NCBI GenBank assembly: GCA_046735335.1
Contig: JBKPTE010000046.1
Span: forward strand, 32,080-96,079
DNA from: Acidobacteriota bacterium
GTDB taxonomy: Bacteria; Acidobacteriota; Vicinamibacteria; Vicinamibacterales; 2-12-FULL-66-21
Direction: 5' to 3'
DNA: 64,000 nucleotides
The translations under genes were made by a program, and so were the position numbers. This document shows, one piece after another, positions 20,505 through 50,087 of the stretch. Within the stretch, counting starts at the first letter, position 1. Every line of letters starts with the position of its first letter. The notes under the pieces are model-generated. The model was given only the letters and a program-made list of their open reading frames with translations. It searched no databases and had not been told where the DNA came from.

Positions 20505-20682
20505 GGTTCACAAGGTTCACGGGGTTCACAGGGTTCAGGGCTGGGTTCTCAGAGTTCCTGGTTCTCAGGTTCTTTGGTTCGCAGGTTCTCGGTTCGCAGC
20601 CCACGAACCCTGAAGAACCGATGAACCGCTGCGAACCCATGAACCCAGCCCTGAACCGCGTGAACGCCGTGAACCCCGAACC
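20505..20682. repeat. tandem-unit inverted repeat filling the parB-selD spacer (GGTTC x10 then GAACC x8)
   Basis: GGTTC at 20505, 20514, 20523, 20532, 20544, 20560, 20568, 20576, 20584, 20591. Centre GGTTCG-cagccca-CGAACC at 20591..20609. GAACC at 20605, 20615, 20623, 20633, 20641, 20653, 20671, 20678. A 17-nt exact complement pair: 20532..20548 with 20641..20657. Confidence 0.9.
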
Positions 20683-20688
20683 GCGGCT

Positions 20689-21540
20689 CTACGAATCAGT
20701 GAATCTCTCGTAGAGCCGCTGCAACTCCTCTTCGTTCCCGAAATCGATCTCGATCCGTCCGCCTTTGCCCTTGCGGACAATCCGGACGCGAGTGCCGAGC
20801 GAGAGCCGCAGCTTCTCTTCGGCGGCGCGCGTATGAACGTCCTTCACGGGCTCCGCTTTCGGCGCGGACGGCTGCTGCGCCTTGCGGATGCGCTCTTCCG
20901 TCTCGCGCACCGACAGATTCGCCGACGCGATGTCGCGCGCGAGCTGCAGCAGTAGGCCCTCGTCGGCGAGCCCGAGCAGCGCGCGCGCGTGTCCCATCGA
21001 CAACACGCCCGACGCGACGCTGGTGCGGATCTCCTGCGGCAGCCGGAGCAGCCGAAGGTAGTTCGCGATCGAAGAGCGATCCTTGCCCACGGCGTCCGCG
21101 ATCTCTTCCTGCGTGAGGTGGTAATCGTCCGCGAGGCGCCGGTACGCCTGCGCCTCTTCGATGGGATTCAGGTCCTGCCGCTGAATATTCTCGATGAGCG
21201 CCACCGCGAGCAGCCGGTCGTCGGGAATGTCACGCACGACGATCGGCACTTTGAGCAGGCCGGCGTGCTGGGCGGCCCTCCAGCGGCGCTCGCCCGCGAC
21301 GATCTCGTAGCTGCCGTCGACGCGGCGCACGACGATCGGTTGAATGATGCCGTTCGACCGGATGGAGCGAGACAGTTCCTCGATGCGCTCCTCGTCCATC
21401 TGCGTGCGCGGCTGAAAGCGATTCGGGCGCAGGAGATCGGTGTCGATCTCGAGCGCGCGCTCCGGCGGCGCACTGGGCAGGGGAGCATCGGGGATGAGCG
21501 CACTGAGTCCGCGGCCGAGGGCAGGACGTTTGTCAACCAT
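20689..21540 (-). CDS. parB: chromosome partitioning protein ParB
   Basis: From ATG 21540: MVDKRPALGRGLSALIP..., IVAGERRWRAAQHAGL, HTH LTQEEIADAVGKDRSSIANYLRLLRLP. Overlaps the parA stop by 8 nt. Confidence 0.95.
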   Translation of the reverse strand: MVDKRPALGRGLSALIPDAPLPSAPPERALEIDTDLLRPNRFQPRTQMDEERIEELSRSIRSNGIIQPIVVRRVDGSYEIVAGERRWRAAQHAGLLKVPIVVRDIPDDRLLAVALIENIQRQDLNPIEEAQAYRRLADDYHLTQEEIADAVGKDRSSIANYLRLLRLPQEIRTSVASGVLSMGHARALLGLADEGLLLQLARDIASANLSVRETEERIRKAQQPSAPKAEPVKDVHTRAAEEKLRLSLGTRVRIVRKGKGGRIEIDFGNEEELQRLYERFTDS

Positions 21541-22339
21541 GCTGAGGCTCCGGTGCTGCGGCCGCGCTCTCGCGGGCGAGCAGCTCGCGCGCGAGCGCGA
21601 GGTACGCCTCGGCGCCGCGCGATTTGACGTCGTAGAGGATGGCAGGGAGGCCGTGGCTCGGCGCTTCACCCAGCCGGATGTTGCGCGGAATCACCGTGGA
21701 GAAGACGCGATCCTGAAAGAACTCGCGGATGTCGCGCGCCACCTGCTGCCCCAGGTTCGTCCGCTCGTCGTACATCGTCATCAACACGCCGGCGATGTCG
21801 AGCGACGGGTTGAGCGCGCCGCGCACGCGCCGCAGCGTCGCCACGAGATCGGCGAGGCCTTCGAGCGCGAAGTACTCGCAGTTGAGCGGAATCAGCACGG
21901 CGTCCGCGGCGACGAGCGCATTCAACGTGAGGAGTCCGAGGGATGGGGGCGTGTCGATGAAGATGAAATCGAAGCGGTCGCGCAACGGCGTCAGCACGTC
22001 GCGCAGACGCCGCTCGCGATTCGTCATCGTGACGAGCTCCACCTCGGCGCCGGTGAGATTGCGATCGGCCGGCACCAGCGACAGCCCCTTGACGGAAGTT
22101 TCGAGGACGAACGCCGCGGGATCCTCGGCCGGCTCGGACCTCGTGAGCGCCTCGTACACGGTGCCCGCCTCGGATGCGCGCCCCTTGAGGCCGAATCCGC
22201 TCGTGAGGTTCCCCTGCGGGTCCATGTCGACGGCCAGGACCTTCTGCTTCGCCATCGCGAGCGCCGTCGCGAGGTTGATCGCGGTGGTCGTCTTGCCGAC
22301 GCCGCCTTTCTGATTTGCGACCGCGAATGTCCGACTCAT
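21533..22339 (-). CDS. parA: chromosome partitioning ATPase ParA/Soj
   Basis: Deviant Walker A AVANQKGGVGKTTTAINLA; IFIDTPPSLGLLTLNAL. Confidence 0.95.
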   Translation of the reverse strand: MSRTFAVANQKGGVGKTTTAINLATALAMAKQKVLAVDMDPQGNLTSGFGLKGRASEAGTVYEALTRSEPAEDPAAFVLETSVKGLSLVPADRNLTGAEVELVTMTNRERRLRDVLTPLRDRFDFIFIDTPPSLGLLTLNALVAADAVLIPLNCEYFALEGLADLVATLRRVRGALNPSLDIAGVLMTMYDERTNLGQQVARDIREFFQDRVFSTVIPRNIRLGEAPSHGLPAILYDVKSRGAEAYLALARELLARESAAAAPEPQHG

Positions 22340-23025
22340 TTGGTTATTCGACCAAATATGTTTGGCTGCTCTGATGTTCCACGTGGAACACTGCCGACGA
22401 CCTTGGCGAGCACCATCAGGCTACTTTGGTTGGCCGGGACAAGAGGATACCTCCCTACCTGACGTAAGGTCGAGGGGTAATCAGTGCGTTCCAATCTCTG
22501 AGATGCACCGAGGAAGAGCGCAACCCGGGATTGTCCCGTTACCGCGCCAGCGATGAGCTTCCAGCTATCGGGACCAAGCCGAACAGCCCGCGCCGAGATC
22601 ACCGTGGGCGATGGTAGTTGCGTTTCCCTCAGCACGTCGTCAAACCGCGCGGCTTCCACACGCGCCTGCAGGCCGAGTTCTCGGACAGCCTCGCGCAGAA
22701 ACGCCGCCTTCCGTGTTCGCGCCTCGATCATTTGAAGGCTAACGGCGCCAGACGCCAGCGCCAGGGGAATGGCAGGAGAGCCTCCGCCCGATCCCAGGTC
22801 AACCATGCTGGGGCCGCGGGGTAAGTGTGCAGCCGCCGCAACCGGTTCGAGCAGGAGCCGGTCAATCGCGGCGTCCGGCTCATCAAGAGAAGTGAGGTTG
22901 ATGACGGTGTTCCAGCGCGTGAGGAGCGCGTAGTACGCGAGCAAGCGCTCGACCAGCACGTCTGAAAGTGTCAGGTGTGCCGCCCCGGCACGGGCGTTGA
23001 ACCGGCCGCGGACTTCCTCGTCCAT
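22336..23025 (-). CDS. rsmG: 16S rRNA (guanine527-N7)-methyltransferase
   Basis: From ATG 23025 (the track ORF is over-extended to 23460). SAM motif VDLGSGGGSPAIPLAL. Sits in the conserved position between mnmG and parA. Confidence 0.9.
   Translation of the reverse strand: MDEEVRGRFNARAGAAHLTLSDVLVERLLAYYALLTRWNTVINLTSLDEPDAAIDRLLLEPVAAAAHLPRGPSMVDLGSGGGSPAIPLALASGAVSLQMIEARTRKAAFLREAVRELGLQARVEAARFDDVLRETQLPSPTVISARAVRLGPDSWKLIAGAVTGQSRVALFLGASQRLERTDYPSTLRQVGRYPLVPANQSSLMVLAKVVGSVPRGTSEQPNIFGRITK
22375..22390. promoter_or_regulatory. parS: parS centromere-like site TGTTCCACGTGGAACA
   Basis: Perfect 16-bp palindrome that differs from the common parS TGTTTCACGTGAAACA only by a symmetric T>C/A>G pair. 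Lies 36 nt upstream of the parA start, inside the rsmG 3' tail. Confidence 0.8.
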
Positions 23026-23030
23026 CTGGT

Positions 23031-24833
23031 CTATCGGTTCAGCCGGGCGGCAATCAAGGCGACGGCCGCCGGCGTGACGCCGGGTATTCGGCTGGCCTGG
23101 CCAAGCGTTTCCGGCCGAACGGCCGCGAGCCGCTCGACCATCTCCCTGGACAGGCCCGGAACTCCCCGATACGTGAACGTCGCCGGAATGCCGCGCGACT
23201 CCTGCTTCCGAAGCCGGTCGACGACGGTTAGCTGCCGGCGGAGATAGCCGGCGTAGCGAAACTCGGTTTCGAGCGTGGCCAGATCGATGTGGTGGCGGAT
23301 CTCGAGCGGTAGCGACCTGGCAATCCGGTCCACGTCCATACCCGGCCGCGCCATCGCTCGCGCCGCGCCGATGCGAATCCCGTCGACGACGACTGATGAC
23401 CGGCGGATCGTCTCGATGTTCCGCTCGAAACGCGTGCGGCGATCGACGAACGCCTCCCAACGGGGGTCGTCCACGAGACCCGCGCGGCGGCCCTGCGGTG
23501 TCAACCGCAAGTCCGCGTTGTCGGTCCGGAGCAGAAGGCGATGCTCGGCCCGCGACGTGAACATGCGGTACGGCTCGAGGCAGCCTCTCGTCGTGAGGTC
23601 ATCGACCATGACGCCGATGTAGGCTTCATCTCGGCCGAGGACGAGCGGATCCCGTCGGCGAACCGCCAGCGCCGCGTTGATGCCCGCCATGAGACCCTGA
23701 GCGGCCGCCTCCTCGTAGCCCGACGTGCCGTTGATCTGGCCAGCCAGAAACAAGCGACCTACCCGGTGGGTTTCGAGCGTCCGGCGCAGTTCCGTCGGCT
23801 GAATGAAATCGTATTCGACGGCGTACCCGGGCCGAAGCATCTCCGCGTCTTCCAGGCCGTTCATCGCGCGAACGACGTCCATCTGCACGCCGGCCGGCAG
23901 GCTCATCGAAAGACCGTTGACGTAGATTTCGGCCGCGTCGAGTCCCTCGGGCTCCAGGAAGATCTGGTGCCGCTCCCGGTGCGGGAACCGCATGATCTTG
24001 TCCTCGAGCGACGGGCAGTACCTCGGCCCGATGCCGGAGATCTGGCCGTTGTACAGCGGCGACTGACCGATGTGCGCCCGGACGAGGTCGTGGACACGCT
24101 CGGTCGTGTGGAGCAGGTGACAGGAGATCTGCGGACGATCGATCGCTTCTGTCAGAAAGGAGAAGGGAACCGGCGGGTCGTCCCCTCGCTCCTCCTGGAA
24201 CCGCGAAAAGTCGATGCTGCGGCGATGGAGCCGCGGAGGCGTCCCGGTCTTCAGCCGGCCCCACTCGAAACGGAACGACTTCAGCGATTCGGAGAGATCC
24301 CGTGAGGGTGGTTCGCCGGCGCGCCCCGCCGGCCGCTGCTCCGGACCGATGTGAACGAGGCCGTTGAGGAACGTGCCGGTCGTGACGATCAGCGCGTCGC
24401 AACCGTACGTGTCGCCGTCCTCCAGCGCGAGTCCGCGGACGCGGCCCTGTTGCACGAGGACCCGCCCCGCCTTACCGATGATCCATGAGAGATTGGGAAG
24501 CTCCTCGAGTGTCGCGCGGACCCAGCGGCCGTACTCGCGCTTGTCGGCCTGCGCACGCGGGGACCAGACGGCAGGACCGCGGCTCCGGTTCAGCAGCTTG
24601 AACTGGATGCCCGTGGCGTCGATGGCGAGCCCCATAATCCCGCCGAGCGCGTCGATTTCCCGAACCAGATGCCCCTTCGCCGTGCCGCCGATGGCGGGGT
24701 TGCACGGCATCTGCGCGACGGTGTCGCGGGACAGCGTGCAGACGGCCACGTCACATCCCATGCGCGCGGCGGCCCATGCGGCTTCGACCCCCGCGTGCCC
24801 GGCACCGATGACGATGATCTCGTGGCGCCGCAT
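23031..24833 (-). CDS. mnmG: tRNA uridine 5-carboxymethylaminomethyl modification enzyme MnmG (GidA)
   Basis: FAD motif [13 protein letters not shown]. 600 aa collinear with GidA, with the C-terminal ...[15 protein letters not shown] motif. Confidence 0.97.
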
Positions 24834-24851
24834 TGATGACTTACGTATGTC

Positions 24852-26195
24852 CTATTTGCCGATGCAGAACCGCTCGAAGATCGTGCGCAGCACCTCGTCC
24901 GGCGCGCGCGCGCCGGCGACGTCGTCGAAGCACGCGCGCGCCTCGTGCAGGTCCGCGAGCACCAGCTCCTCGGGCCGGCCTTCAGCCGCCGCAATCGCCG
25001 CACGCGCGATCGCCTCCTTCGCGCGAAGGAGCAGCGAGGCGTGCCGGACGTTCGCGATCGCGGGACGATCTCGTCCGGGCGACGGCGCAATCGTCTGTGT
25101 CAGCGCGGCGCGCAGCGCGTCGATGCCTTCGTCCGTCAACGACGAAACGGACAGCGCGCCGGCGTCCTCGCTCCGCCATGCGGCCGGCAGGTCCGACTTG
25201 CTCGCAACGATCACGCGCGCGCGATTGCGCGTCTCGCTCAGGAGCGATCTATCGATGTCGGAGAGCGGCTCGGAGCGATCCAGAACGACGAGCACCACAT
25301 CCGACGCAGCCGCCGCCTGACGTGCGCGCGTCATGCCTTCTTCTTCGATCGCATCGTCCGATGACTCGCGGAGGCCGGCGGTGTCGACGAGCGTCATTGG
25401 AACTCCGCCGATGTCGACGCGCTCCGTGACGAGGTCGCGCGTCGTTCCCGGCACGTCCGTCACGATGGCCCGCGCGGCGCCAATCAGCCGGTTGAACAGG
25501 CTCGACTTTCCAGCGTTCGGCCGCCCCGCGATCGCAACGGTGAGGCCCTCGCGAATGAGCCGGCCGCGAGCCGCGTCCGCCAGCAGCACGTCGAGATCGC
25601 CGGCAAGACTCACCAGCTCCGCTGATGTGCCGTTCGGGTCGCTGAAGTGATAGCCCTCTTCGGGAAAATCGAGTGACGCTTCGAGCGGCGCGATCGCGTC
25701 GAGCAACCGTGCGTCCAGCGCGCGCAGACGCCCGGTCAGCGTCCCTTCGAGTTGATCGAATGCAAGGCGCGCCTGCGCCGGTGTCACGGCATCGATGAGA
25801 TCGGCCACCGCTTCGGCCTGCACCAGATCGATTCGGCCGTTCAAATAGGCGCGCAGCGTGAACTCGCCAGGATTCGCCAGCCGCGCACCACCGCTCAGTG
25901 CCGCTCGAACGATCTGCTCGAGGATCGTCGGGCTGCCGTGCGCCGAGATTTCGACGAGGTCGTCGCCGGTATACGACCGCGGGCCCGGGAAGAACGTCAC
26001 GATGACCTCGTCGAGCGGACAGCCGTCGTGGTCGTGCACGTGCGCGAACGTCGCGAGGCGCGGCTCGACGGAGGCTCGACCCGTCAGCGCGCACGCGATA
26101 CTCGCCGCCACCGGCCCGCTCAGGCGGACGATGCCGATGGCCCCCCGGCCTGGGGGAGTCGCGATGGCCACGATTGTGTCGGCTGGCGAAAACAC
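24852..26195 (-). CDS. mnmE: tRNA modification GTPase MnmE (TrmE)
   Basis: GTG start. G1 motif GRPNAGKSSLFNRL, DTAGLR, and the C-terminal FCIGK tetrapeptide. Confidence 0.95.
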   Translation of the reverse strand: MFSPADTIVAIATPPGRGAIGIVRLSGPVAASIACALTGRASVEPRLATFAHVHDHDGCPLDEVIVTFFPGPRSYTGDDLVEISAHGSPTILEQIVRAALSGGARLANPGEFTLRAYLNGRIDLVQAEAVADLIDAVTPAQARLAFDQLEGTLTGRLRALDARLLDAIAPLEASLDFPEEGYHFSDPNGTSAELVSLAGDLDVLLADAARGRLIREGLTVAIAGRPNAGKSSLFNRLIGAARAIVTDVPGTTRDLVTERVDIGGVPMTLVDTAGLRESSDDAIEEEGMTRARQAAAASDVVLVVLDRSEPLSDIDRSLLSETRNRARVIVASKSDLPAAWRSEDAGALSVSSLTDEGIDALRAALTQTIAPSPGRDRPAIANVRHASLLLRAKEAIARAAIAAAEGRPEELVLADLHEARACFDDVAGARAPDEVLRTIFERFCIGK

Positions 26196-26354
26196 GGTTC
26201 TCGGGTTCTCTCGGGTTCTCAGGTTCTCAGGTTCTCGGGTTCTCAGGTTCTCGGGTTCTCAGGTTTCTCGGGTTCTCGGGTTCTCAGGTTCGAGAGGATC
26301 CCCGAACCCCCGAACGTGAGAACCTGAACCTGAGAACCTCAGAACCTTGGAACC
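26196..26354. repeat. tandem-unit inverted repeat filling the jag-mnmE spacer (GGTTCTCR x11-12 then GAGAACC-type x6)
   Basis: GGTTC at 26196, 26204, 26214, 26222, 26230, 26238, 26246, 26254, 26271, 26279, 26287 (GGTTTC at 26262), mostly on an 8-nt period. Centre GGTTCG-agaggatccc-CGAACC at 26287..26308. GAACC at 26304, 26320, 26326, 26334, 26342, 26350. Confidence 0.95.
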
Positions 26355-26366
26355 ACACAATTCAGG

Positions 26367-26816
26367 TTATCGCCGGCTGGAGATGATGACCGTCTTCAAG
26401 TACGCGTCGCCGATGCTCTCGGACGTCATCTGCGGATCTTCCGCGACGGTGAGGTGGACGAGCCGGCGGCAGTACGGATTTAGAGGCCCCATTTCCTGCG
26501 GCGAGCCGGACGTTCGCGCCTTCTCCATCATGAAGCGCGCCATCTGCCGCAGCTCGGCATCCTTGGCCTTGCGGTAATCCATGCAGTCGACGACGAAGCT
26601 GCGGTCGTCCTTCAACTCGCGGCGGAATCCCGTGTTGACGATTTGCTGCAGCGCATCGAGCGCCTCCGCCTTCCGGCGCAGCAGAATCTCGCCCCCCTCG
26701 CCGGATAGATCGATGCGAATCGCGTCTAGCGTGTCCTCCACGCGCACGTCGAGCGGTAGTTGCATCGCGGACAGGACGTCTTTCATGAAGGCGGCGACCT
26801 TGTGCTGCACGTCCAT
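26367..26816 (-). CDS. jag: RNA-binding protein Jag/KhpB (KH + R3H domains)
   Basis: Conserved position after yidC. R3H-type C-terminus LNPYCRRLVHLTVAEDPQMTSESIGD. Start is ATG 26816 (sharing its A with the yidC TGA) or GTG 26819. Confidence 0.85.
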   Translation of the reverse strand: MDVQHKVAAFMKDVLSAMQLPLDVRVEDTLDAIRIDLSGEGGEILLRRKAEALDALQQIVNTGFRRELKDDRSFVVDCMDYRKAKDAELRQMARFMMEKARTSGSPQEMGPLNPYCRRLVHLTVAEDPQMTSESIGDAYLKTVIISSRR

Positions 26817-28540
26817 CACTCGCGCTCCTTCGCTTGATCCGTCCGGCCGCTCCCGGCCTTCTTAATCCGTCGCTCCGCAGGCGGGCGCACGGTCCGCTGC
26901 TGCATCGGTCCGATCAGCCTGTTCGTGATCATCTGCTGCCCGATACCCCAGAGGTTGCTCACCGTCCAGTACAGCAGGAGACCGCTCGACCACCAGAGCG
27001 ACATCCCGGCGAGGACGACCGGCATGACCAGCATCATCTTCTGCTGCATCGGGTCGGCGGTCGTGGGCGTCATCCGCTGCTGGAAGAACATCGTCGCGCC
27101 CATGAGCACGGGAAGCACGTAGTACGGATCGGGCGCGACCAGATCGTGAATCCAGAGGATGAACGGCGCGCCGCGCAGCTCGATGGCGACGGCGAGCAGC
27201 GAGTAGAACGCGAACAGCACGGGGAACGTCAGCAGCATTGGGACGCAGCCGCTTGCGGGGTTGACGCCGCGCTCCCGATAGAGGTTCATCAGCTCGACGT
27301 TCATCTTCGAACGCGCGGGATCGCTCATCTTGAGCTTCGCGTAGCGATCCTGAATGGCTTTCACCTCGGGCTGAATCTCCTGCATCTTGCGCATGGAAAC
27401 CACGCTCTTGTGCCGGAGCGGGAACATCGCGAGATTGATCAGCACCGTGAGGATGATCACGGACCATCCGTAGTTGCCGACGAACCCGTTGATCCACTTG
27501 AGCGCGCGCAGCAGGGGGACGGCGAGCCACGCAAACATGCCGAAGTGGATCGCGCGGACGAGGTTGCGATCCACCGAGGCAAGGACGTCGAAATCCTTCG
27601 GCCCGAGGAAGAACGTCGCGTCCGTGGGCGGCGACGGGAACACCATCCACCAGCGGACGAAGTGGGCGCCCTCCGGATTCGACGGCATCTGGACGTTGAG
27701 CGGCTGGTACTCGACGCGAACGGGCGTCTTCGGCGCGACGAGCGCGTCCAGGAAGTAGTGGTCGTCCACGCCGACGAATCCGAACGTGCCTTCCTGGACG
27801 GCCTGCGCCGGAATCTTGTCCTGCGAGACGCGCGTGACGCTGCCGTCCTTGTAGAAGATCGGCTGGGAGGGGGGATTGTAGCTGCGCGAGTGCGGCACGA
27901 GGCCGCCGCCCAGCGACGGACCGCCGTGCACCGTGAAGCTCACGGGCTGGCCCGCGCGCGTCACGGACGCGGAGAACACGAGGACGTACGGCTGCGCGGC
28001 GGAGAGGACGAATGTCTTGTGCGCTTCGAGCCCGCCGGCGCCGCGGAAGTCCAATCGCAGCGTCTGCTGGCCTTGTTCGACGTGAAGGGCGTCGGCGCTT
28101 GCCGTGAAGCTGCCGTTCTCCAGCTCGTTCGAAAGCGCGGCATCCTGCACGCTCAACGTGAACGGCAGCGGCACGTCCGCGCCCACCGTCTGCGGGACGA
28201 GCTCCAGGGTGGCCCCTGCCGTATCGCGATACGTCTTCAGGCGCCAGCTCTTGAGCGCGCCGCCTCTCGTGGTGAATGTCGCGCGCACGTACGCGTTGTC
28301 CACGGTGATATCACGCCCCTCGATCGACGGTGCGCTGGCGGGCACGGGCGTCGCCGGCCGCTGCGTGGACGGCGCAGGCGGCGGCGATGAAGCCGGTGCG
28401 GCCGGATTCCCTGGCTGCGCGGCGGCGCCCGACGCCGGCGTTCTGGCCGCCGGCTGCTGCGGCTTGGACGGCAGAAGGAACTGGAAGCCTGCGATGACCA
28501 GGAACGAGAGGACGACGAACAGCAGAACGTTGCGCTGCAT
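26816..28540 (-). CDS. yidC: membrane protein insertase YidC
   Basis: From ATG 28540: N-terminal TM helix, large periplasmic domain, then a conserved core (YGWSVIILTVLINLAMFPLRHKS...MQEIQPEVKAIQDRY...GCVPMLLTFPVLFAFY). Confidence 0.95.
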   Translation of the reverse strand: MQRNVLLFVVLSFLVIAGFQFLLPSKPQQPAARTPASGAAAQPGNPAAPASSPPPAPSTQRPATPVPASAPSIEGRDITVDNAYVRATFTTRGGALKSWRLKTYRDTAGATLELVPQTVGADVPLPFTLSVQDAALSNELENGSFTASADALHVEQGQQTLRLDFRGAGGLEAHKTFVLSAAQPYVLVFSASVTRAGQPVSFTVHGGPSLGGGLVPHSRSYNPPSQPIFYKDGSVTRVSQDKIPAQAVQEGTFGFVGVDDHYFLDALVAPKTPVRVEYQPLNVQMPSNPEGAHFVRWWMVFPSPPTDATFFLGPKDFDVLASVDRNLVRAIHFGMFAWLAVPLLRALKWINGFVGNYGWSVIILTVLINLAMFPLRHKSVVSMRKMQEIQPEVKAIQDRYAKLKMSDPARSKMNVELMNLYRERGVNPASGCVPMLLTFPVLFAFYSLLAVAIELRGAPFILWIHDLVAPDPYYVLPVLMGATMFFQQRMTPTTADPMQQKMMLVMPVVLAGMSLWWSSGLLLYWTVSNLWGIGQQMITNRLIGPMQQRTVRPPAERRIKKAGSGRTDQAKERE

Positions 28541-28547
28541 GGACGAA

Positions 28548-28799
28548 TCAATTCGACGAAGCCGGTTCCTTCGGGGCGCGCGCCGGAACCGGATCGAGCC
28601 CGGACCCGCCGAGAGGGTGACACCGCGCGAGCCTGCGCAGCGCGAGCAGTCCGCCCCGCAGCGCGCCGTGCATCCGGACGGCATCCGCGGCGTAGACGGA
28701 GCAGGAGGGCACGAAGCGGCACGCGCCCCCAGTCATCGACGCCAAGGTCAACTGATACAATCGGATAGCGCCAAGCGCCAGTCGCGCGCTGATCGTCAT
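28548..28799 (-). CDS. yidD: membrane protein insertion efficiency factor YidD
   Basis: From ATG 28799: ...[53 protein letters not shown] overlap with the rnpA stop. Confidence 0.85.
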
Positions 28800-29176
28800 T
28801 TGTCGGCTGGGCGCCGGCAGCGCCGCAGCGTGGCCCGGAAGTCCTCCTGGACGGCGGACCACCGGGCATCGAGCAGGGCGGGCTTCGGGATCACGACGAG
28901 ATCGAGCGCGGGCCGGGATGGGGCTTCCGTTCTGAAGACTTCTCGGATCAGGCGTTTCGCGCGATTTCTCACGACGGCGCCCCCCAGCCGGCGCGAGGCG
29001 ACGATGCCGAGGCGCAGGACCTCGCGGCGGTCGGTGTCGTTGTTCACGGCGCGGTCACCGGAGGACGCGATGATCGTGAAATATCGGCCATGAACTCTGC
29101 GACCGGTGTCGAATACCCGCTGGAACTCGGTACGGCGGCGCAGCCGGCGGGCGCGGGGCAGGGTCAGGGATGGCAT
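28796..29176 (-). CDS. rnpA: ribonuclease P protein component
   Basis: [23 protein letters not shown]...[27 protein letters not shown]. Conserved position after rpmH. Confidence 0.85.
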
Positions 29177-29231
29177 GGATGACGCCGGGCGGTCCGAACC
29201 GCCTCCCGGACTGCCGATGTTGCGGTCCTCT

Positions 29232-29378
29232 TCAGCGGGACGTCGAAACGGTCAGGCGCTTTCGCCCCTTGGCGCGACGTCGCTTGAGCACGAGCCGCCC
29301 GTTTTTCGTGCTCATGCGCACGAGGAACCCGTGCGTGCGCTTCCGGTGCCGCCGATTCGGTTGATACGTCCGCTTCAT
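29232..29378 (-). CDS. rpmH: 50S ribosomal protein L34
   Basis: Not in the ORF track (48 aa). The minus strand translates to [48 protein letters not shown], stop TGA 29234..29232. Confidence 0.92.
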
Positions 29379-29424
29379 GATGATGCCAGCCTGCCGCGAA
29401 TGTCGCGCAAAGGGAGAAACCCAA

Positions 29425-29454
29425 ATACTAGCGAAGCGGGAAGAGTCCTGTCAA
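29425..29454 (-). promoter_or_regulatory. candidate rpmH promoter TTGACA-N18-TAGTAT
   Basis: The minus strand reads TTGACAggactcttcccgcttcgcTAGTAT, 46 nt upstream of the rpmH ATG. Confidence 0.45.
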
Positions 29455-29478
29455 TTCAGGCCCGGAAAATAAGGGCGT

Positions 29479-29508
29479 TTGTCACACTCGAAAACGCTAT
29501 GCTACAGT
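29479..29508 (+). promoter_or_regulatory. candidate dnaA promoter TTGTCA-N18-TACAGT
   Basis: Back-to-back with the rpmH promoter. The DnaA-box trio lies 36-67 nt downstream of the -10 element. Confidence 0.35.
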
Positions 29509-29543
29509 CCGTTCCCCGCGCGCGGTTGGGTCAGCCCCCGAAG

Positions 29544-29575
29544 TTTTCCACAGGTGTGGAAAAAAATGTGGAAAA
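29544..29575. promoter_or_regulatory. cluster of three perfect DnaA boxes (TTTTCCACA)
   Basis: TTTTCCACA at 29544..29552 (+). TGTGGAAAA at 29555..29563 and 29567..29575 (-). All match the TTWTNCACA consensus. Confidence 0.75.
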
Positions 29576-29690
29576 ACCCGGAGGCGAAGGTCGGAAACCC
29601 CTTGTAACTGGCGGCGAAAAATAAGAGCTGGGCGGCCGGCCGCCGTGGGAACAGGGTTCGCTGAAGGCGAAAGGTCCCGGAATCGTAATC

Positions 29691-31022
29691 ATGACGGGCA
29701 CTAATCTCTGGGATCAGGTCCTCTCCCGGATCGAAACCAAGGTCAACCGGCACAGCTTCTACACGTGGTTCAAGCCGACCGCGTACGTCGACGAGCGTGA
29801 CGAAGCGGTCCGCGTACGGGTGCCGAATGCGCTGTTTCGGGACTGGCTGACGAAGCACTACTCGGCCGTCATTCAGGAGGCGCTTGCCGAGCTGAATCAT
29901 CCGACGACCGCCGTATCGTACGTCACGGACGAGGCGCCCGCGGTCGTACCACCCGAACCGCCAGCGGTCGCCCTGCCCGAGCCCATCGAGGAAGCCGTCG
30001 AGGAGGGAGGGGCCCTCAGCGCCCGGTACTCCTTCGACACCTTCGTCGTCGGGCCCTCGAACCAGTTTGCGCACGCCGCCTGCCGGGCGGTCGCGGAAGC
30101 GCCGTCGCGTTCCTACAATCCGCTGTTCATCTACGGCGGGGTGGGGCTCGGCAAGACGCACCTGATGCACGCGATTGGGCACTACCTGGTGAACCATCTC
30201 AAGAACCTGAAGCTGACATACATCTCGTCCGAGCGCTTCATGAACGAGATGATCAACGCCGTCCGCTACGATCGCGTCCTCGACTTCCGCGAGCGTTATC
30301 GCAGCGTCGACGTGCTGCTCGTCGACGACATTCAGTTCCTCGCGGGCAAGGAAGGCACGCAGACCGAGTTCTTCCACACGTTCAACGCCCTGTACGACTC
30401 GCAGAAGCAGATCGTCATCAGCAGCGACTGCCCGCCGCACGAGATCCCGCAGCTCGAGGAGCGCCTGCGTTCGAGGTTCGAATGGGGCCTGATCGCCGAC
30501 ATCCAGGCGCCGGATCTCGAGACGAAGACGGCAATCCTGAAGAAAAAGGCGGAAACGGAAGGGATTCCGCTCCCGGACAACGTCGCGATCTACATCGCGG
30601 GCAAGATCAAGTCGAACATCCGCGAGCTCGAAGGATCGCTCATCCGGCTCATCGCCTACGCGTCGCTCACCGGCCGTGAGATGTCGCTGCCGCTCGCGCA
30701 GGACGTGCTGCGCAACGTCCTGCAGAACGACGAAAAGGCGATCACGATCGAGATCGTCCAGAAGGCGGTCGCCGACTACTACCAGCTGAAGCTCGCCGAT
30801 CTGAAGTCACGCAACAACTCGAAGTCGGTCGCGATGCCGCGCCAGATCGCCATGTATCTGTGCAAGACGCTCACGAACGCGTCGCTTCCGGAGATCGGCA
30901 AGAGCTTCGGCGGCAAACATCACTCGACCGTCATACACTCCATTCGCAAGATCGAAGATCTCCGGCAGCGCGAGGGAGATTTCAACACCCTCATCAACAA
31001 CTTCATGGAGTCGTTTCGCTGA
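29691..31022 (+). CDS. dnaA: chromosomal replication initiator protein DnaA
   Basis: GGVGLGKTHLMHAIG, DDIQFLAGKEGTQTEFFHTFN, and a C-terminal DNA-binding domain (HSTVIHSIRKIE). Confidence 0.97.
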   Translation: MTGTNLWDQVLSRIETKVNRHSFYTWFKPTAYVDERDEAVRVRVPNALFRDWLTKHYSAVIQEALAELNHPTTAVSYVTDEAPAVVPPEPPAVALPEPIEEAVEEGGALSARYSFDTFVVGPSNQFAHAACRAVAEAPSRSYNPLFIYGGVGLGKTHLMHAIGHYLVNHLKNLKLTYISSERFMNEMINAVRYDRVLDFRERYRSVDVLLVDDIQFLAGKEGTQTEFFHTFNALYDSQKQIVISSDCPPHEIPQLEERLRSRFEWGLIADIQAPDLETKTAILKKKAETEGIPLPDNVAIYIAGKIKSNIRELEGSLIRLIAYASLTGREMSLPLAQDVLRNVLQNDEKAITIEIVQKAVADYYQLKLADLKSRNNSKSVAMPRQIAMYLCKTLTNASLPEIGKSFGGKHHSTVIHSIRKIEDLRQREGDFNTLINNFMESFR

Positions 31023-31033
31023 GGCGAACGGCG

Positions 31034-31260
31034 TTTTCCACAGCACCCGCCGCATCCCGGCTGTGGACGTCCTGTGCGCGCTGTCCGGGGTCCGAAACCT
31101 CAACAGGAACCGCCTGAAATCCCCTCCGCGGACCCACCGATCCTTCCACAAGCTAAGTAACAGATTTTCAAGGACCTACGGCTGATATTTCGCTTTTCAA
31201 CAGCACCTCTTTCTTGTTATAATTCTTTGTTCCGGTTTCTCTCCCTATTTTCTGAGATCA
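31034..31260. other. oriC: candidate oriC segment: DnaA boxes plus AT-rich unwinding region in the dnaA-dnaN spacer
   Basis: Perfect box TTTTCCACA at 31034..31042. Degenerate boxes: TGTGGAC 31062..31068, CCTTCCACA 31142..31150, TTTTCAACA 31194..31202. Region 31141..31260 is 47/120 = 39% G+C by hand count. Confidence 0.5.
31215..31223 (+). promoter_or_regulatory. extended -10 element TGtTATAAT (candidate dnaN promoter)
   Basis: TGTTATAAT lies 43 nt upstream of the dnaN ATG, inside the AT-rich island. No convincing -35 element. Confidence 0.3.
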
Positions 31261-31265
31261 CCACT

Positions 31266-32381: not shown

Positions 32382-32390
32382 CCTGACTGA

Positions 32391-35035
<2,645 letters not shown>

Positions 35036-35036
<1 letters not shown>

Positions 35037-35116: not shown

Positions 35117-35121
35117 TACAG

Positions 35122-37602: not shown

Positions 37603-39862
37603 GCTTCGCGAACTTCGCGAGGAGCTTCTTCTGACCGACTGAATTGAACCGGACGGTCACCTTCAGATCATCCGTGTGCTCGTCCACCGCGAGGACCGTC
37701 CCGACGCCGAACTGCGCGTGCCTGACGCGCATGCCGGGACGCAACGGCGCGGCCGACTGATCTTCGTTTTCGTACGAATAGGCAGGCGCGTCTTCGCGGA
37801 ATCTGGCGCCGCGTCCCTTCCGCCCGTACGGGTTCGTCCGGAACTCGTAATGGGCGTGCGTGAACGTTCCCTGATACGCCGGCCTCTCGGCGTCGATGCG
37901 CTCGACGAGCTCGGGAGGAATCTCGACGAGGAACCGTGACGGCTGTGTGCCCTGGTACTCGCCGAAGATCCGCCGCCGCGCGGCGCCGGTGAGGACGAGA
38001 CGCGATTCCGCTCGCGTCATCCCCACGTAGAAGAGCCGGCGCTCCTCTTCCATCTCCGCCTCGTCCTCCGACGAGCGCGAGTGCGGGAACAGCCCGTCCT
38101 CCATCCCCGCGATGATGACGACCGGGAACTCCAGCCCCTTTGCCGCGTGCATCGTCATCAGCCAGACCTTCGCCTCGCGGGTGCCGGCCTCCTCGTCTGC
38201 CTCCGAGAGCAGCGAGAGGCGATCGACGAACCCGCCGATGGACGCGTCGGCTTCACGCGTCTCGTATTCGCGCGCGGCCGAGACGAGCTCCATGAGGTTC
38301 TCGATGCGTTCGTTGGATTCCTCGGAGTTGTCGTCGCGGAGATCGTTCAAGTACCCCGTCTGGTCCAGCATCTTGCCGATCGCGATCGAGACGGGATCCT
38401 GCCGAGCGACTTGCGCGAGCCCGACGAGAAGATCGCGGAAGACGCGGAGGGACGCGACGGCGCGGTTTCCGAGCTTCCCTTCGTCCACGGCGTACACGAG
38501 GCGGGCCCAGAGCGAGCGCGCGGAGCTGACCTCGGCGAGGCCTGCGGCGAGGAGCGGCGGTGCATCGGCCGCGATCGCGTCGGGATCGATGGCCTGCAGC
38601 GCGTCCATCACGCCCTTGCCGATCCCGCGCGCCGGCACGTTGATCACCCGCCGAAGGCTCACATCGTCGTGCGGGTTGATGATCAACTTGAGGTACGCGA
38701 GCGCGTCCTTGATCTCCTTGCGTTCGTAGAACCGCACGCCGCCGATGATCTTGTAGGCGACGCCTTCTCGCATGAGCGAGTCTTCAATCGCGCGCGACTG
38801 CGCGTTCGTGCGATAGAGCACCGCGAGGGTGGCGTCGAGGTCCTCGGCGCGCGCCTGTTTCGTGGTGCGCGTGATGAAGTCCGCCTCTTCGAGCTCGTCG
38901 CCGCCTCGGAAGTAGAGGATCTTCCGCCCGCCTTTGCGCTCCGTCCACAGGCGCTTGTCCTTGCGATTGCGGTTCTGCTGGATGACCGCGGTGGCTGCGT
39001 CGAGGATCACTTGCGTGGAGCGATAGTTCTGTTCGAGCCGGACGATCTTCGCCTCGGGAAAGTCGTGCTCGAAATCGAGGATGTTTCTCAGGTCGGCGCC
39101 GCGCCACTTGTAGATCGACTGATCGGGATCGCCCACGACCGCAAGGTTGCGGTGGAGCTCTGACAACCGCCGGATGAGGAGGTACTGCGGGCGGTTCGTG
39201 TCCTGATACTCGTCGACCATCACGTAGCGGAACTTGCGCGCGTAGCGCTCGCGCGTCGCCGCGGACGTTTCGAACAGCTCGACGGTCTTCAGGAGCAGAT
39301 CGTCGAAGTCGAGGGCGTTCGAGTCCGCGAGCGCGCGGATGTAGCGTTCGTAGATCTTCGCGATCTGCTCGTCGCGCAGGTTCCACTGTCCGCGCAGCGA
39401 GTCGGGCCCTTCCATCCGGTTCTTCGCCTGGCTGATGCGCGCGAGCGCCATGCGCGGCGGCACGAGCTTGTCGTCGATCCCGAGCTCGCGCTCAGCCTGC
39501 TTCACGACGGCGACCTGGTCGGACGAATCGTAGATGACGAAGTCGCGGGAGAGGCCGATGTGCGGCGCCTCGCGCCTCAGCAGCCGCGCGCAGAGTGAAT
39601 GGAACGTCGACAGCCAGATGCCGTTGCACTCCTTGCCGAGGAGCGACTCCACGCGGTCGCGCATCTCCCCCGCCGCCTTGTTGGTGAAGGTGACGGCCAG
39701 CACCTCGTCCGCCTTCGCATGGCCATCGCCGACGATGTAGGCGATGCGGTAGGTGATGACGCGCGTCTTTCCCGAGCCCGCGCCCGCGAGGATGAGAAGG
39801 GGGCCGTCGATCTGCAGCACGGCCTCACGCTGCTCGGGGTTCAGGTTCGCGAGGAAAGACAT
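37589..39862 (-). CDS. uvrD: ATP-dependent DNA helicase UvrD/PcrA family
   Basis: From ATG 39862: MSFLANLNPEQREAVLQIDGPLLILAGAGSGKTRV, YVMVDEYQDTNRPQY, VVGDPDQSIYKWRGA. The track ORF is over-extended to 40246. The 3' end overlaps the gyrA 3' end by 14 nt (convergent). Confidence 0.9.
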   Translation of the reverse strand: MSFLANLNPEQREAVLQIDGPLLILAGAGSGKTRVITYRIAYIVGDGHAKADEVLAVTFTNKAAGEMRDRVESLLGKECNGIWLSTFHSLCARLLRREAPHIGLSRDFVIYDSSDQVAVVKQAERELGIDDKLVPPRMALARISQAKNRMEGPDSLRGQWNLRDEQIAKIYERYIRALADSNALDFDDLLLKTVELFETSAATRERYARKFRYVMVDEYQDTNRPQYLLIRRLSELHRNLAVVGDPDQSIYKWRGADLRNILDFEHDFPEAKIVRLEQNYRSTQVILDAATAVIQQNRNRKDKRLWTERKGGRKILYFRGGDELEEADFITRTTKQARAEDLDATLAVLYRTNAQSRAIEDSLMREGVAYKIIGGVRFYERKEIKDALAYLKLIINPHDDVSLRRVINVPARGIGKGVMDALQAIDPDAIAADAPPLLAAGLAEVSSARSLWARLVYAVDEGKLGNRAVASLRVFRDLLVGLAQVARQDPVSIAIGKMLDQTGYLNDLRDDNSEESNERIENLMELVSAAREYETREADASIGGFVDRLSLLSEADEEAGTREAKVWLMTMHAAKGLEFPVVIIAGMEDGLFPHSRSSEDEAEMEEERRLFYVGMTRAESRLVLTGAARRRIFGEYQGTQPSRFLVEIPPELVERIDAERPAYQGTFTHAHYEFRTNPYGRKGRGARFREDAPAYSYENEDQSAAPLRPGMRVRHAQFGVGTVLAVDEHTDDLKVTVRFNSVGQKKLLAKFAKLTPA

Positions 39863-39878: not shown

Positions 39879-39968
39879 TAGCGGGTGCGACGTGCCTCGT
39901 GCGGGTGCGTCGAGCGGCGTGCGGCGTGCGGGTGCGTGGCGCGGGTGCATTGGCGCGGTGTGTGAGAA
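39879..39968. repeat. GC-rich array of GCGGGTGCG-type units upstream of uvrD
   Basis: GCGGGTGCG at 39881, 39901, 39928; GCGGGTGCa at 39941; GCGCGGTGTGTG at 39954. Confidence 0.75.
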
Positions 39969-42554: not shown

Positions 42555-42595
42555 TTTCAGGGCCGGTCATCGGTCGCGCGGCCCTTTCAGGGCCG
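42555..42595. terminator. convergent-gene hairpins with repeated arm (leuD / LysR gene)
   Basis: TTTCAGGGCCG at 42555 and 42585. CGGCCCT at 42579..42585 can pair with either copy (7 bp with a 13-nt loop, or CGGCCC-TTTCA-GGGCCG). Confidence 0.45.
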
Positions 42596-42598
42596 CGA

Positions 42599-45901: not shown

Positions 45902-45903
45902 GG

Positions 45904-45997
45904 CACGTCTTCAGACGTGTCTCCGCACGTCGCGGCGATCGTCACTGAGGCGCATCTTTAAGGCGCATCTAAAGATGCGCCCTACGAAGAATGCGCC
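45904..45997. terminator. hairpin pair between convergent leuB and SPFH gene, second one with 2 direct + 2 inverted unit copies
   Basis: CACGTC-TTCA-GACGTG at 45904..45919. AGGCGCATCT at 45948 and 45961; AGATGCGCC at 45973 and AGAATGCGCC at 45988. Central hairpin GGCGCATC-TAAA-GATGCGCC. Confidence 0.5.
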
Positions 45998-46002
45998 CCA
46001 GC

Positions 46003-48140: not shown

Positions 48141-48146
48141 CGCCGC

Positions 48147-49991
48147 TTACTCGACGGTGACGCTCTTCGCGAGGTTGCGCGGCTGATCGACGTCGCAGCC
48201 GCGCCTCACGGCGATGTGATACGCGAGCAGCTGCAGCGGCACGACCATCAGGACCGGCATCAGAAGGGGCTGCGCGGCGGGAACGGTGATCAGGAAATCC
48301 TGCGACGGGTCGAGGAGTTGACCGATGCCGTCGTTCCCTTCCGTCGTGAGCGCGATCACGGAACCGCCGCGCGCCTTCGCCTCCTGGATGTTGCCCATCA
48401 TCTTCTCGAAGACGTGATCGTGCGGCGCGATCGTGACGATGGGCATCTGCTCGTCGATGAGCGCGATCGGTCCGTGCTTCATCTCCCCCGCGGGATAGCC
48501 TTCCGCGTGAATGTACGAAATCTCCTTCAGCTTGAGCGCTCCTTCGAGCGCGATTGGATAATTGATGCCGCGCCCGAGGTAGAGGAAGTCGCTTCGCTGA
48601 TAGAAGCGCCGGGCGATTTCCTCCGTCAGCGGCTCGCACTTCAGCGTCTGCTCGAGCAGCAGCGGAAGCTGCGTCAGCGCGTCGAGGTGCGGCCGCGCAT
48701 CCTCGGGCGCCAGCACGCCGCGGATCTGGCCCAAGTAGATCGCGAGCAGGTGCAGCGCGACGAGCTGCGACGTGAACGCTTTCGTCGAGGCGACGCCGAT
48801 CTCAGGGCCTGCGTGCGTGTAGACGGTGCCGTCGCTCTCGCGCGTCGCCATGCTGCCGACGACGTTGCAGATGGCGATGCTGTGCGCCCCCTTCTTCTTC
48901 GCCTCCCGAAGCGCGGCGAGGGTGTCCGCCGTTTCCCCTGACTGGGTGATGACGACGGCAAGCGTGTTCTTCGGCACGATCGGGTCGCGGTAGCGATACT
49001 CGGAACCGTAGTCGACGTCGACCGGCACCCGCGCCAGCGATTCGAACAAGAACTTGCCGACGAGGCCGGCGTGCCACGACGTGCCGCACGCGAGGATGAT
49101 TACGCGCTCGGTCGCGCGCAGGACGTCGTCGGGGATCTGGATCTCCTGCAGGAACACGCGTCCGCGCTCGACCGATGCGCGCCCGAGCACCGTCTCCCTC
49201 ACCGCCCAGGGCTGCTCGAACACCTCCTTGAGCATGAAGTGCTTGTATCCGGCCTTCTCCGCCATGACCGGATCCCACGACACGCGCGTGCTCTTCTTCG
49301 AGACGCCGCGTCCGGAATAGTCGGTGAATTCCACGCCCGACGGCGTGATAACCGCCATCTCCTCGTCGCCCAGAAACACGACGTCTCTCGTGTGGGCGAG
49401 GATCGCCGGTATGTCGGATGCGACGAAGAACTCCCGATCGCCGAGGCCGACGACGATGGGCGGCCCGTTGCGGACGGTCACGATCTTGCGCGGATCGTCG
49501 GCGGAGATCAGGACGAGCGCGAACAGGCCGCGCATGTACAGCAGCGCACGCCTGACCGCGTTCTCGAGACCGTCGTCCTTCATCTCGCGTTCGACGAGAT
49601 GCGCGACGATCTCCGTATCGGTTTCCGTCACGAACACGTGGCCTTCCGACTGGAGCTGGCGCTTCAGATCGAGATAGTTCTCGATGATCCCGTTGTGGAC
49701 GACGACGATGCGGCCGGTGCAGTCGCGGTGAGGATGCGCGTTCTCTTCGGTGGGACGGCCGTGCGTGGCCCAGCGCGTGTGGCCGATCCCGTACTCGCCT
49801 TCGAGGGGATTGACGGCAATCGCTTCCTCGAGCCGCGCGAGCTTGCCCGCGCTGCGGCGCAGCTCGATCGCGCCGTCGCGCACGACGGCGACGCCCGCCG
49901 AGTCGTAGCCGCGGTACTCGAGCCGCCGCAGCCCGTCGATGAGGATCGGCAGGACCTGCTTCTGCCCGATGTAACCGATGATGCCGCACAT
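48147..49991 (-). CDS. glmS: glutamine--fructose-6-phosphate aminotransferase
   Basis: From ATG 49991: MCGIIGYIG (N-terminal Cys nucleophile), two SIS domains, C-terminal ...NLAKSVTVE. The track ORF is over-extended to 50222. Confidence 0.97.
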
Positions 49992-50010
49992 ATCGCTGAT
50001 GGTTGTCAAA

Positions 50011-50087
50011 GGCGAATGACGAACGACGAACGACGAATTTCGAGCTTCATCATTCGTCTTTCGCCGTTCGTCTTCCGTCGTTGAGTC
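50011..50087. repeat. tandem-unit inverted repeat at the glmU-glmS junction (7-nt register, GACGAAY x4 then TTCGTCN-type x6)
   Basis: Units start at 50011, 50018, 50025, 50032 (GGCGAAT GACGAAC GACGAAC GACGAAT), at 50039 (TTCGAGC), then at 50046, 50053, 50060, 50067, 50074, 50081 (TTCATCA TTCGTCT TTCGCCG TTCGTCT TCCGTCG TTGAGTC). Centre GACGAAT/ATTCGTC at 50032..50058. The right arm lies inside the last codons of glmU. Confidence 0.9.

Follow-up and report, generated by a model that had tools for sequence, protein, structure and literature searches.

Tandem arrays of heptanucleotides in bacterial spacers have reportedly been known since 1990, when Mazel and colleagues are said to have described the cyanobacterial STRR heptamers CCCCAGT, TTGGTCA and CAACAGT as lineage-wide families defined by hybridization. 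By the same account, STRR are tandem heptamers dispersed in non-coding DNA, with a few families per genome, and to our knowledge their definition includes neither an opposed-arm architecture nor a stop-to-start placement. Here we analyze a 64-kb stretch of DNA (the window) from an Acidobacteriota bacterium of the order Vicinamibacterales (contig JBKPTE010000046.1), in which four spacers between housekeeping genes carry elements, S1 to S4, made of a short tandem unit that is then repeated as its reverse complement, giving two opposed arms around a central hairpin. The original prediction, made from the sequence of this stretch alone, took them for a possible unnamed class. That suggestion falls, as matching heptamer arrays have been reported for Xanthomonas and Nostoc (PMC4692102).

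The Xanthomonas (GGGAATC) and Nostoc (GGGGA(C/T)T) arrays are heptameric, about 90% intergenic and located mostly between open reading frames (ORFs) in aligned orientation (Rehm et al., 2015, PMC4692102), and they are under-represented between divergent ORFs. Their G-rich strand follows a stop codon, and the sense strand is C-rich where an array lies less than 50 bp from the next start (PMC4692102). Convergent (G-first) inverted pairs number 70–75 per Xanthomonas genome, and there are few paired repeats in Nostoc (PMC4692102). At matching loci of Xcc and Xac the arrays vary in length and sequence; quadruplex formation has been proposed for the repeats of both genera, and their function is given as unknown (PMC4692102). 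Catalogued in these two genera in 2015, heptamer arrays are still without an agreed function, and we found no later work that resolves it.

A second precedent is the TAACTGA heptamer of Beggiatoaceae, Cyanobacteria and Bacteroidetes, which lies just upstream of starts without canonical ribosome-binding sites (MacGregor, 2015, PMC4679880) and occurs in 169 direct sets and one inverted set (PMC4679880). The arrays described here likewise lie a few nucleotides upstream of start codons, but the TAACTGA repeats have one fixed, A/T-rich unit and are almost always direct. A Nostoc preprint also places heptamers near start codons, with effects that it leaves unresolved (bioRxiv 10.1101/2022.06.06.494920). 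We found nothing in the literature on such arrays in Acidobacteria.

The Vicinamibacterales arrays resemble those of Xanthomonas and Nostoc in that tandem heptamers predominate, in their intergenic position between co-directional genes, in the G-rich sequence after stops and C-rich sequence before starts, and in their convergent pairs. They differ in taxon, being from Acidobacteriota, and in that a single genome holds several unit families with no single consensus. Most of their units cannot form quadruplexes (a canonical G3 quadruplex motif is present in 3 of 36 G-rich arrays and in none of the G-rich arms of the window), and four copies are not preferred. About two thirds of the array-bearing spacers in Vicinamibacterales are two-armed and the remaining third one-armed; in Xanthomonas, by contrast, such pairs form a minority, and in Nostoc they are rare. 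By a broad definition, based on unit length, non-coding placement, polarity and convergent pairs, the present arrays are heptamer arrays; by the strict GGGNATC definition (Rehm et al., 2015) they are not, as they have no quadruplex capacity, single consensus or four-unit preference. The heptamer arrays of Xanthomonas and cyanobacteria are already known, then, and what is new is the unusually unit-diverse, mostly two-armed form found in Vicinamibacterales.

Two-armed arrays in the window

Three of the four elements stand out clearly from chance. The predicted RNA folds in the mRNA sense are −118.1 kcal/mol for S1 (parB>selD; z −9.6), −91.2 for S2 (jag>mnmE; z −7.5) and −31 for S3 (gyrB>gyrA; z −5.1), and a whole-window scan for 5-mers with at least three copies on the left and at least three reverse-complement copies on the right returned these three plus a weak coding match at 36240. 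S4 (glmU>glmS), judged on the window alone, is a marginal element: it has 3 units, 5 of 200 shuffles fold as well as it does (z −2.2), the 5-mer scan did not pick it up, and one arm (50052–50084) falls within the final codons of glmU, the spacer proper being just 49992–50049. Triplet-shuffled sequence contained no element with two periodic arms.

The array followed by its reverse complement, predicted for four spacers, is thus secure in S1–S3 and marginal in S4. All four pairs of co-directional, flanking housekeeping genes were confirmed by Pfam, and each element has its perfect central hairpin where one had been expected (Table 1). That the G/U-rich arm comes first in the mRNA sense is true of S1 and S2 and fails for S4, whose first arm is G/A-rich. 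The units do differ between spacers, as predicted, although S1 and S2 share the family GGTTC-YC. Tandem Repeats Finder (TRF) gave periods of 9 and 8 for S1, 8 for S2 (11.6 copies), 8 for S3 and 7 for S4 (3.6 copies), and an inverted-repeat finder gave arms of 35 nt (91% complementarity), 29 nt (86%), 25 nt (84%) and 33 nt (82%), respectively. The window contains at least three unit families (GGTTCYC, GTGAAY and GACGAAY), plus GGTTGGA and GTGCGGG.

Occurrence across Vicinamibacterales

Orthologous spacers were extracted from 80 genome loci and 79 metagenome loci (about 160 related loci), covering the origin-proximal 20 kb of each genome. They show the same layout built from other units, which bears out the view that this is a recurrent architecture and not four coincidences. 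Periodic arrays were found in 35 of 80 gyrB>gyrA spacers (22 of them two-armed), in 38 of 142 at jag>mnmE, in 7 of 33 at parB>selD and in 4 of 51 at dnaN>gyrB, and a strict detector counted 33 two-armed elements in 2.15 Mb. The coding fraction of the convincing elements is near 0, and most lie in spacers between two plus-strand or two minus-strand genes; divergent spacers of 50–260 nt numbered 14 in the locus set, and divergent and convergent spacers were too few to analyze. The arrays are described here as a population of intergenic short-unit tandem arrays that is common throughout this order of soil Acidobacteria, usually with two opposed arms. In array-free relatives the spacers are only 1–40 nt long, so no essential signal is lodged in them.

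These counts come from detectors that demand periodic spacing. They replaced a looser two-arm detector applied to whole spacers, which scored about 11% positives in shuffled sequence, since what passes for a long "spacer" is often a missed gene. A control of 150 kb of Ralstonia megaplasmid and 50 kb of E. coli yielded 0 two-armed elements; it is too small to decide the matter, since only some 2–3 elements would be expected at the density seen in Vicinamibacterales.

The units vary by species. Among 125 arrays we counted 102 distinct units, examples being GGGTGCC, GGGGCTG, GGGACTG, GGTGCGA, GGTCGTCC and CAGGAAT, as well as CCAGTT, TAGGGC, GAGGGA, TAGAAGT, GATCTGGT and TTGATTG. Trinucleotide enrichment revealed no universal motif, the skews being slight (GGA, GAA and AAT raised about 1.6–1.8-fold; CGC, ATG and ATA reduced). 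The unit length is more constant: periods of 7 nt account for 68 of the 125 arrays (54%), 8 nt for 24 (19%), 9 nt for 11 (9%) and 6 nt for 2, and an independent metagenome set of 60 arrays gave 33 (55%), 14 (23%), 7 (12%) and 0. Copy number decays roughly geometrically (arrays with 3 to 8 copies number 57, 24, 14, 7, 2 and 1, and two have 11 copies), and four units do not form a peak. A giant one-armed array was noticed downstream of parB in locus L032 (1–201), in which about 22 copies of GGGTGCCCR run from the parB stop to the end of the locus.

The unit GGGACTG/CAGTCCC, present in L019 (11757–11826 and 17537–17668), L036 (7811–7930) and L148 (490), is a rotation of the STRR1 heptamer CCCCAGT. 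A common bias, or else convergence, could lie behind this likeness.

Placement and polarity

Read in the mRNA sense, 31 of 36 G-rich arrays in co-directional spacers start between −3 and +17 nt from the upstream stop codon, the median array start being 4 nt after it. Near start codons, C-rich arrays outnumber G-rich ones 27:1 (17:1 in the replicate); near stop codons the G-rich arrays prevail, by 35:17 and 21:6. The two-armed elements are predominantly G-first, with a G-first to C-first ratio of 24:5 by the strict detector (p=5e-4) and of 32:7 in hairpin alignments (p=7e-5). As a two-armed element reads alike on both strands, this bias is a genuine handedness and not a strand effect. The G-first layout places G after the stop and C before the start in any gene arrangement, and a gene-relative rule and an intrinsic DNA rule are inseparable here. 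Rare C-first elements are found in L005 at jag>mnmE (6362–6473; CAACTCC.../GGGAGTTG...) and in L024 in the convergent spacer after gyrA (17823–17913; CACCGAG/CTCGGTG); as exceptions to the polarity, they could be informative test cases.

The gyrB>gyrA and jag>mnmE gaps amount to a natural experiment, in that they keep the two-armed, G-first layout in dozens of species with differing units. The same layout with different and mostly non-quadruplex units argues against a quadruplex or a sequence-specific binder as a general explanation; what has to be explained instead is why the unit measures 7 nt, why the arrays have their polarity and why they are placed as they are with respect to stops and starts. 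The comparative value of these loci is in showing conservation of architecture, unit length and polarity without conservation of sequence, which narrows the possible explanations, and the set offers further contrasts in arm swaps, in two- versus one-armed arrays and in array-bearing versus 3-nt spacers of close relatives.

Comparison of the two arms

If pairing between the arms were maintained in the mRNA, most mismatches should be G:U-compatible and the sense strand should fold better than the antisense. Neither holds. Arm mismatches comprise 38 of the G:U type and 55 of the A:C type (G:U share 0.41, 95% confidence interval 0.31–0.52), and the sense RNA is the more stable in 24 elements and the antisense in 22 (p=0.30), with S3 at −22.4 kcal/mol in the sense and −42.6 in the antisense orientation in this comparison. 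There is therefore no sign of pairing selected in the mRNA. Within an arm, the linker nucleotides that separate the conserved cores are homogeneous, but they differ from one arm to the other, and a linker mirror test, aimed at register-specific pairing or recent whole-arm duplication, found that linker variants are not mirrored (mirror order 24, reversed 23, permuted 22.5). From these sequence comparisons we conclude that the arms appear to expand and homogenize separately, with precise register pairing apparently not kept. The mismatch, folding and linker results are evidence against strong RNA-level selection, and no proof that the RNA is functionless.

On the gene strand, S1–S3 contain no intrinsic terminator consensus and no promoter consensus, and the terminator total across 19000–38000 equals the shuffle expectation. 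An Rfam search of the 64-kb window at the gathering threshold returned one tRNA and no other family, including the glmS ribozyme. The earlier idea that the elements are RNase processing or attenuation sites finds no supporting trace in the mismatch, folding, terminator or promoter results and is weakened by them.

Unit families and rate of change

Within a genome, 10 of 61 pairs of different spacers have a repeated 6-mer in common, compared with 76 of 3020 pairs between genomes (odds ratio 7.6, p=5e-6); by a rough estimate, the between-genome sharing is at about chance level for 7-nt units. The S3 family (GGTGAATT/AATTCACC) recurs in L048, L114, L115, L126 and L127, whose GyrB proteins are 80–87% identical to that of the window. 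In L115, L126 and L127, an element of this family lies on both sides of gyrB (dnaN>gyrB and gyrB>gyrA; Table 1), and by inspection the central cores of these copies are partly homologous. Copies on either side of gyrB imply that whole elements, not units alone, can be copied to nearby spacers, and they are the best hint that we have of such copying. Beyond the degenerate units, no central core is shared across the 32 elements or families, and no target-site duplications were seen at S1–S3. We noticed no transposase gene beside any element, although no systematic search was made.

Seven locus pairs are at least 99.5% identical, and over the roughly 850 nt of arrays that they contain, the difference amounts to one 8-nt unit (L126 versus L127, which are 99.7% identical). 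Most arrays are identical in such close pairs, so these loci are not of the fast phase-variable kind. At about 97% identity, pairs have additional indels inside arrays, unit-sized ones included, and the indel density is some 17-fold higher in arrays than in the remaining aligned sequence, which is mostly coding. The arrays change by whole units over evolutionary time. The suggestion that they are slippage-prone variable spacers accordingly stands on that time scale, in view of the geometric copy-number decay, the dominance of 7-nt units and the unit-sized indels, but not in the sense of rapid phase variation.

Origin of the arrays

Our preferred reading, which we hold with moderate confidence, is that the arrays are generated and remodeled at the DNA level, by slippage and by inverted copying or palindrome expansion, and are then filtered by selection at coding sequence and at starts. 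Replication slippage would amplify a 7–9-nt unit, and the opposed arm could arise either through inverted copying of the array (by fold-back or by template switching at a hairpin) or through two-sided expansion of a small palindrome. Each arm would then drift and homogenize by itself, and unit families would spread to further spacers within the genome. Selection may mainly filter persistence, removing arrays from coding sequence and G-rich arrays from beside start codons. If co-transcribed with the flanking genes, the arrays would fold as extended, imperfect hairpins, with a stretch poor in G left in front of the following gene. The sequences themselves show the architecture, its prevalence, the bias to 7 nt, the polarity, the turnover of units, their sharing within genomes and the lack of RNA-level signatures; the steps of origin and what causes the polarity we infer from them.

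Several points weigh against a DNA-level origin with selective filtering. The spread of a unit family to several spacers would require a copying mechanism. The G-first polarity has no demonstrated neutral cause; the selective filter at start codons and a self-priming of G-rich 3′ ends are both things that we infer. With a single unit-sized indel among strain-level pairs, the slippage rate is barely measured. The 44% prevalence at one spacer across many species could mean that arrays are selected for, and not that they are born often, the mismatch test is less powerful where re-homogenization of the arms outpaces selection, and all loci come from the origin-proximal 20 kb.

A rather unlikely alternative is that the elements are adaptive intercistronic RNA hairpins, in which an imperfect stem of 30–90 bp serves as an RNase III/E site, as a 3′ stabilizer or as a translation coupler; in the coupling form, a ribosome terminating upstream would melt the stem base and free the region before the next start. 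Prediction gives folds of great stability, and the arrays run from the stop to shortly before the next start, so that the stem base would join the two. Persistence at gyrB>gyrA, a gene pair with products required in equal amounts, is also in keeping with this idea, and the lack of promoter and terminator consensus sequences in the spacers fits co-transcription. The comparison of the arms nevertheless points the other way on every count (no excess of G:U over A:C mismatches, no folding advantage of the sense strand, with S3 much better as antisense, and unmirrored linkers), many relatives do with spacers of 1–30 nt, and roughly a third of the arrays have a single arm.

We regard it as unlikely that the C/A-rich, G-poor arm, or a one-armed array, before the start codon is an unstructured landing site for initiation independent of a Shine-Dalgarno (SD) sequence. 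The strong preference for C-rich over G-rich arrays beside starts is what such a platform would predict, and both extra one-armed arrays of the window follow the same rule, that at 8906–8946 being C/A-rich in the mfd sense and directly upstream of the likely mfd start, and that at 39881–39958 being C-rich in the sense of a uvrD/pcrA-like gene (37589–39862, minus strand) and directly upstream of it. A purely negative filter, in which G-rich sequence is harmful beside a start, would however give the same polarity. SD use in the lineage is low, with GGAG or GAGG at −18 to −4 in 24% of the 982 starts predicted, compared with 9% for a control window, so that the absence of these motifs at the four downstream starts, correctly noted in the original prediction, is ordinary. 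The precedents cited above (PMC4679880; bioRxiv 10.1101/2022.06.06.494920) also lend the platform some plausibility, yet prediction has the C arm of two-armed elements paired rather than free, no unit sequence is common to the elements, and several array-bearing selD spacers keep an AAAGGAG SD between array and start. Of the proposed C/A-rich standby platform, then, the polarity remains, while the missing SD is the lineage norm and selD has an SD in relatives with short spacers.

That the elements are mobile or machine-made seems quite improbable to us. They would then be foldback-like or like miniature inverted-repeat transposable elements, or a HUH/RAYT-like enzyme or 3′-end repeat addition would copy a genome-specific family. 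In a more specific version, to which we likewise give little credence, the arrays are not passive products of slippage, and a dedicated genome-specific agent (for example HUH/RAYT-like or acting by templated 3′-end repeat addition, at breaks or at stalled forks) writes them as stop-to-start palindromes that set the expression ratio of operon genes. Such an agent would explain why G-rich strands run 5′ to 3′ into the center on both strands, why each genome has favored families and why an element reappears in neighboring spacers: the G-first layout may be seen as two such strands, as if one unit had been added to both 3′ ends of a break, family sharing within genomes is far above that between genomes, and the copies around gyrB have partly homologous cores. 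The lack of a conserved central core, of target-site duplications at S1–S3 and of transposases noticed beside the elements (again, with no systematic search) speaks against mobility, as do the many different units within 20–64 kb of a single genome; moreover, the evidence spans only about 20 kb per genome.

Functional DNA structures, with cruciforms or G-quadruplexes and i-motifs acting as supercoiling sensors, gyrase sites or transcription blocks, are very improbable. They would account for the symmetric mismatch pattern and the equal folding of sense and antisense, and the arrays are indeed commonest at gyrB>gyrA and flank gyrB on both sides in some genomes; against this, jag>mnmE and parB>selD accommodate the arrays equally well, G3 motifs are as rare as stated above, four units are not preferred, and long perfect cruciforms would be weakened by linkers that are specific to each arm.

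An assembly artefact, or low-complexity sequence arising by chance, can be dismissed almost entirely: although L084 (1–62), a short-read contig of the population to which the window belongs, terminates inside the S2 array and so shows the difficulty that assemblers have there, S2 is 100% identical in an independent JGI metagenome contig (L081), the architecture recurs in independent assemblies numbering far above 100, many contigs of 0.2–4 Mb among them, and shuffled sequence has none of it. From the identity of S2 in one contig and the break inside S2 in the other, we take the arrays to be real but awkward for assemblers. An exact-protein look-up with DnaA found three short contigs of the same population, which confirmed S2 and added no variation; with Jag it gave no match.

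Other repeat families

REP/BIME sequences are single imperfect palindromes of 20–40 bp with a conserved GTAG or CGTC head, associated with RAYT transposases; for these sequences gyrase binding and mRNA stabilization have been proposed. The present elements are like them in being intergenic and palindromic, often between co-transcribed genes, and in forming genome-specific families, but the arms of S1–S4 are tandem 7–9-nt units without a conserved head tetranucleotide. Mycobacterial MIRUs have units of 40–100 bp, with small ORFs overlapping the stop and start codons on either side, and no opposed arm; they too are tandem repeats in intercistronic operon spacers, with copy numbers that vary between strains, whereas the units described here are 7–9 nt long. 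Eukaryotic foldback (FB) transposons are demonstrably mobile and of kilobase scale and have long inverted arms of short tandem sub-repeats around a variable center; the present arrays share the sub-repeat arms and variable center and are small and bacterial. A CRISPR array was ruled out, as the units are 7–9 nt and contiguous, as opposed to repeats of 23–47 nt with unique spacers.

A separate family of REP-like simple hairpins with CTTCAG or TTCA-type loops, such as GCTTCCGCC-TTCA-GGCGGAAGC and GGCCCGGGCTTCAGCCCGGGC, is found in the window at 1866–1885, 15135–15156, 42560–42598 and 45902–46002 and in spacers of L001, L035 and L038. Such hairpins turn up repeatedly, in many spacers, and form a group apart from the tandem-unit arrays.

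Gene context and features of the window

The window has a G+C content of 66%. Its minus strand carries rnpA-yidD-yidC-jag-mnmE-mnmG and parA-parB-selD, and its plus strand dnaA-dnaN-gyrB-gyrA; because of this dnaA/gyr, par and rnpA–mnmG gene content, we identify it as the chromosomal origin region. The nearest dnaA loci in a species-level genome collection all belong to metagenome-assembled genomes of Vicinamibacterales/Acidobacteriota, with DnaA identities of 65–86%. The positions of the elements and their flanking genes are collected in Table 1.

Table 1. Arrays, central hairpins and flanking genes in the window, and gyrB-flanking element copies in related loci (positions within those loci)
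Feature	Position	Strand	Description
S1, entire parB>selD spacer, 200 nt	20489–20688	−	Two-armed array; direct reading
S1, plus-strand GTTC arm, 11 cores	20505–20599		Units GGTTCACRG, GGTTCTCAG, GGTTCGCAG; in mRNA sense C/A-rich 3′ arm, ends 16 nt ahead of selD ATG
S1, central perfect hairpin	20591–20609		GGTTCG, 7-nt loop, CGAACC
S1, plus-strand GAAC arm, 9 cores	20605–20682		In mRNA sense G/U-rich 5′ arm, 6 nt past parB stop
S2, entire jag>mnmE spacer, 171 nt	26196–26366	−	Two-armed array
S2, plus-strand arm GGTTCTC(A/G)G, 11.6 copies	26196–26293		In mRNA sense C/A-rich 3′ arm, abuts mnmE GTG
S2, central hairpin	26287–26308		GGTTCG, 10-nt loop, CGAACC
S2, plus-strand GAAC arm, 7 cores	26304–26354		In mRNA sense G/U-rich 5′ arm, 12 nt past jag stop
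S3, entire gyrB>gyrA spacer, 85 nt	35037–35121	+	GTGAAYNG x4, hairpin, CCAAYTCA x5; the latter arm ends ~4–6 nt ahead of gyrA ATG
S3, central hairpin	35059–35076		GGTGAAT-CGAA-ATTCACC
S4, glmU>glmS (marginal)	50006–50084	−	GACGAAY x3–4 (50006–50038) opposite TTCGYC copies (50052–50084)
S4, central perfect hairpin	50032–50058
Extra one-armed 7-nt array	8906–8946	−	GGTTGGA/GTTGGTT x6 on plus strand; TRF
Extra one-armed array	39881–39958	−	GTGCGGG-like on plus strand
gyrB-flanking copies, L115	180–400 and 2960–3180
gyrB-flanking copies, L126/L127	640–840 and 3440–3640
parB	20689–21669	−	Pfam; upstream of S1
selD	19454–20488	−	ATG at 20488, AIRS domains (Pfam); downstream of S1
jag (R3H domain)	26367–26819	−	Pfam; upstream of S2
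mnmE	24852–26195	−	Pfam; GTG start at 26195; downstream of S2
gyrB	32391–35036	+	Pfam; upstream of S3
gyrA	35122–37602	+	Pfam; downstream of S3
glmU	50050–51456	−	Pfam; upstream of S4
glmS	48147–49991	−	Pfam; downstream of S4

The arrays have practical consequences, in that they break short-read contigs and can inflate N-termini in automatic annotation. In the window, the mechanical ORFs of glmS (48147–50222) and mfd (5356–8982) read on through the upstream arrays, making glmS 691 instead of 614 amino acids long.

A perfect parS-like palindrome, TGTTCCACGTGGAACA, lies upstream of parA at 22375–22390, and the identical sequence adjoins an array in L041. We considered whether the GGTTCAC arrays might be parS half-sites and dropped the idea, as one base is missing per half and the genuine parS is that at 22375–22390. 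A bipartite oriC candidate consists of DnaA-box-like sequences (TTTTCCACA/TGTGGAAAA) at 29544–29575 and 31034–31042, on either side of dnaA, together with an AT-rich stretch directly before dnaN (about 31190–31265).

The selD gene contains an in-frame TGA at 20450–20452 on the minus strand, in the motif ...YAACAG-U-ASKLAAGEL. The TGA is retained here by most relatives, and L049 and L067 have TGC (Cys). The TGA is a selenocysteine codon, and the selD ORF is therefore split in mechanical ORF lists. Downstream of selD (19303–19453), a direct repeat, TTGTCGGGCACCTC x2, overlaps a hairpin, GGCACCTCC-TT-GGAGGTGCC, that may be terminator-like.

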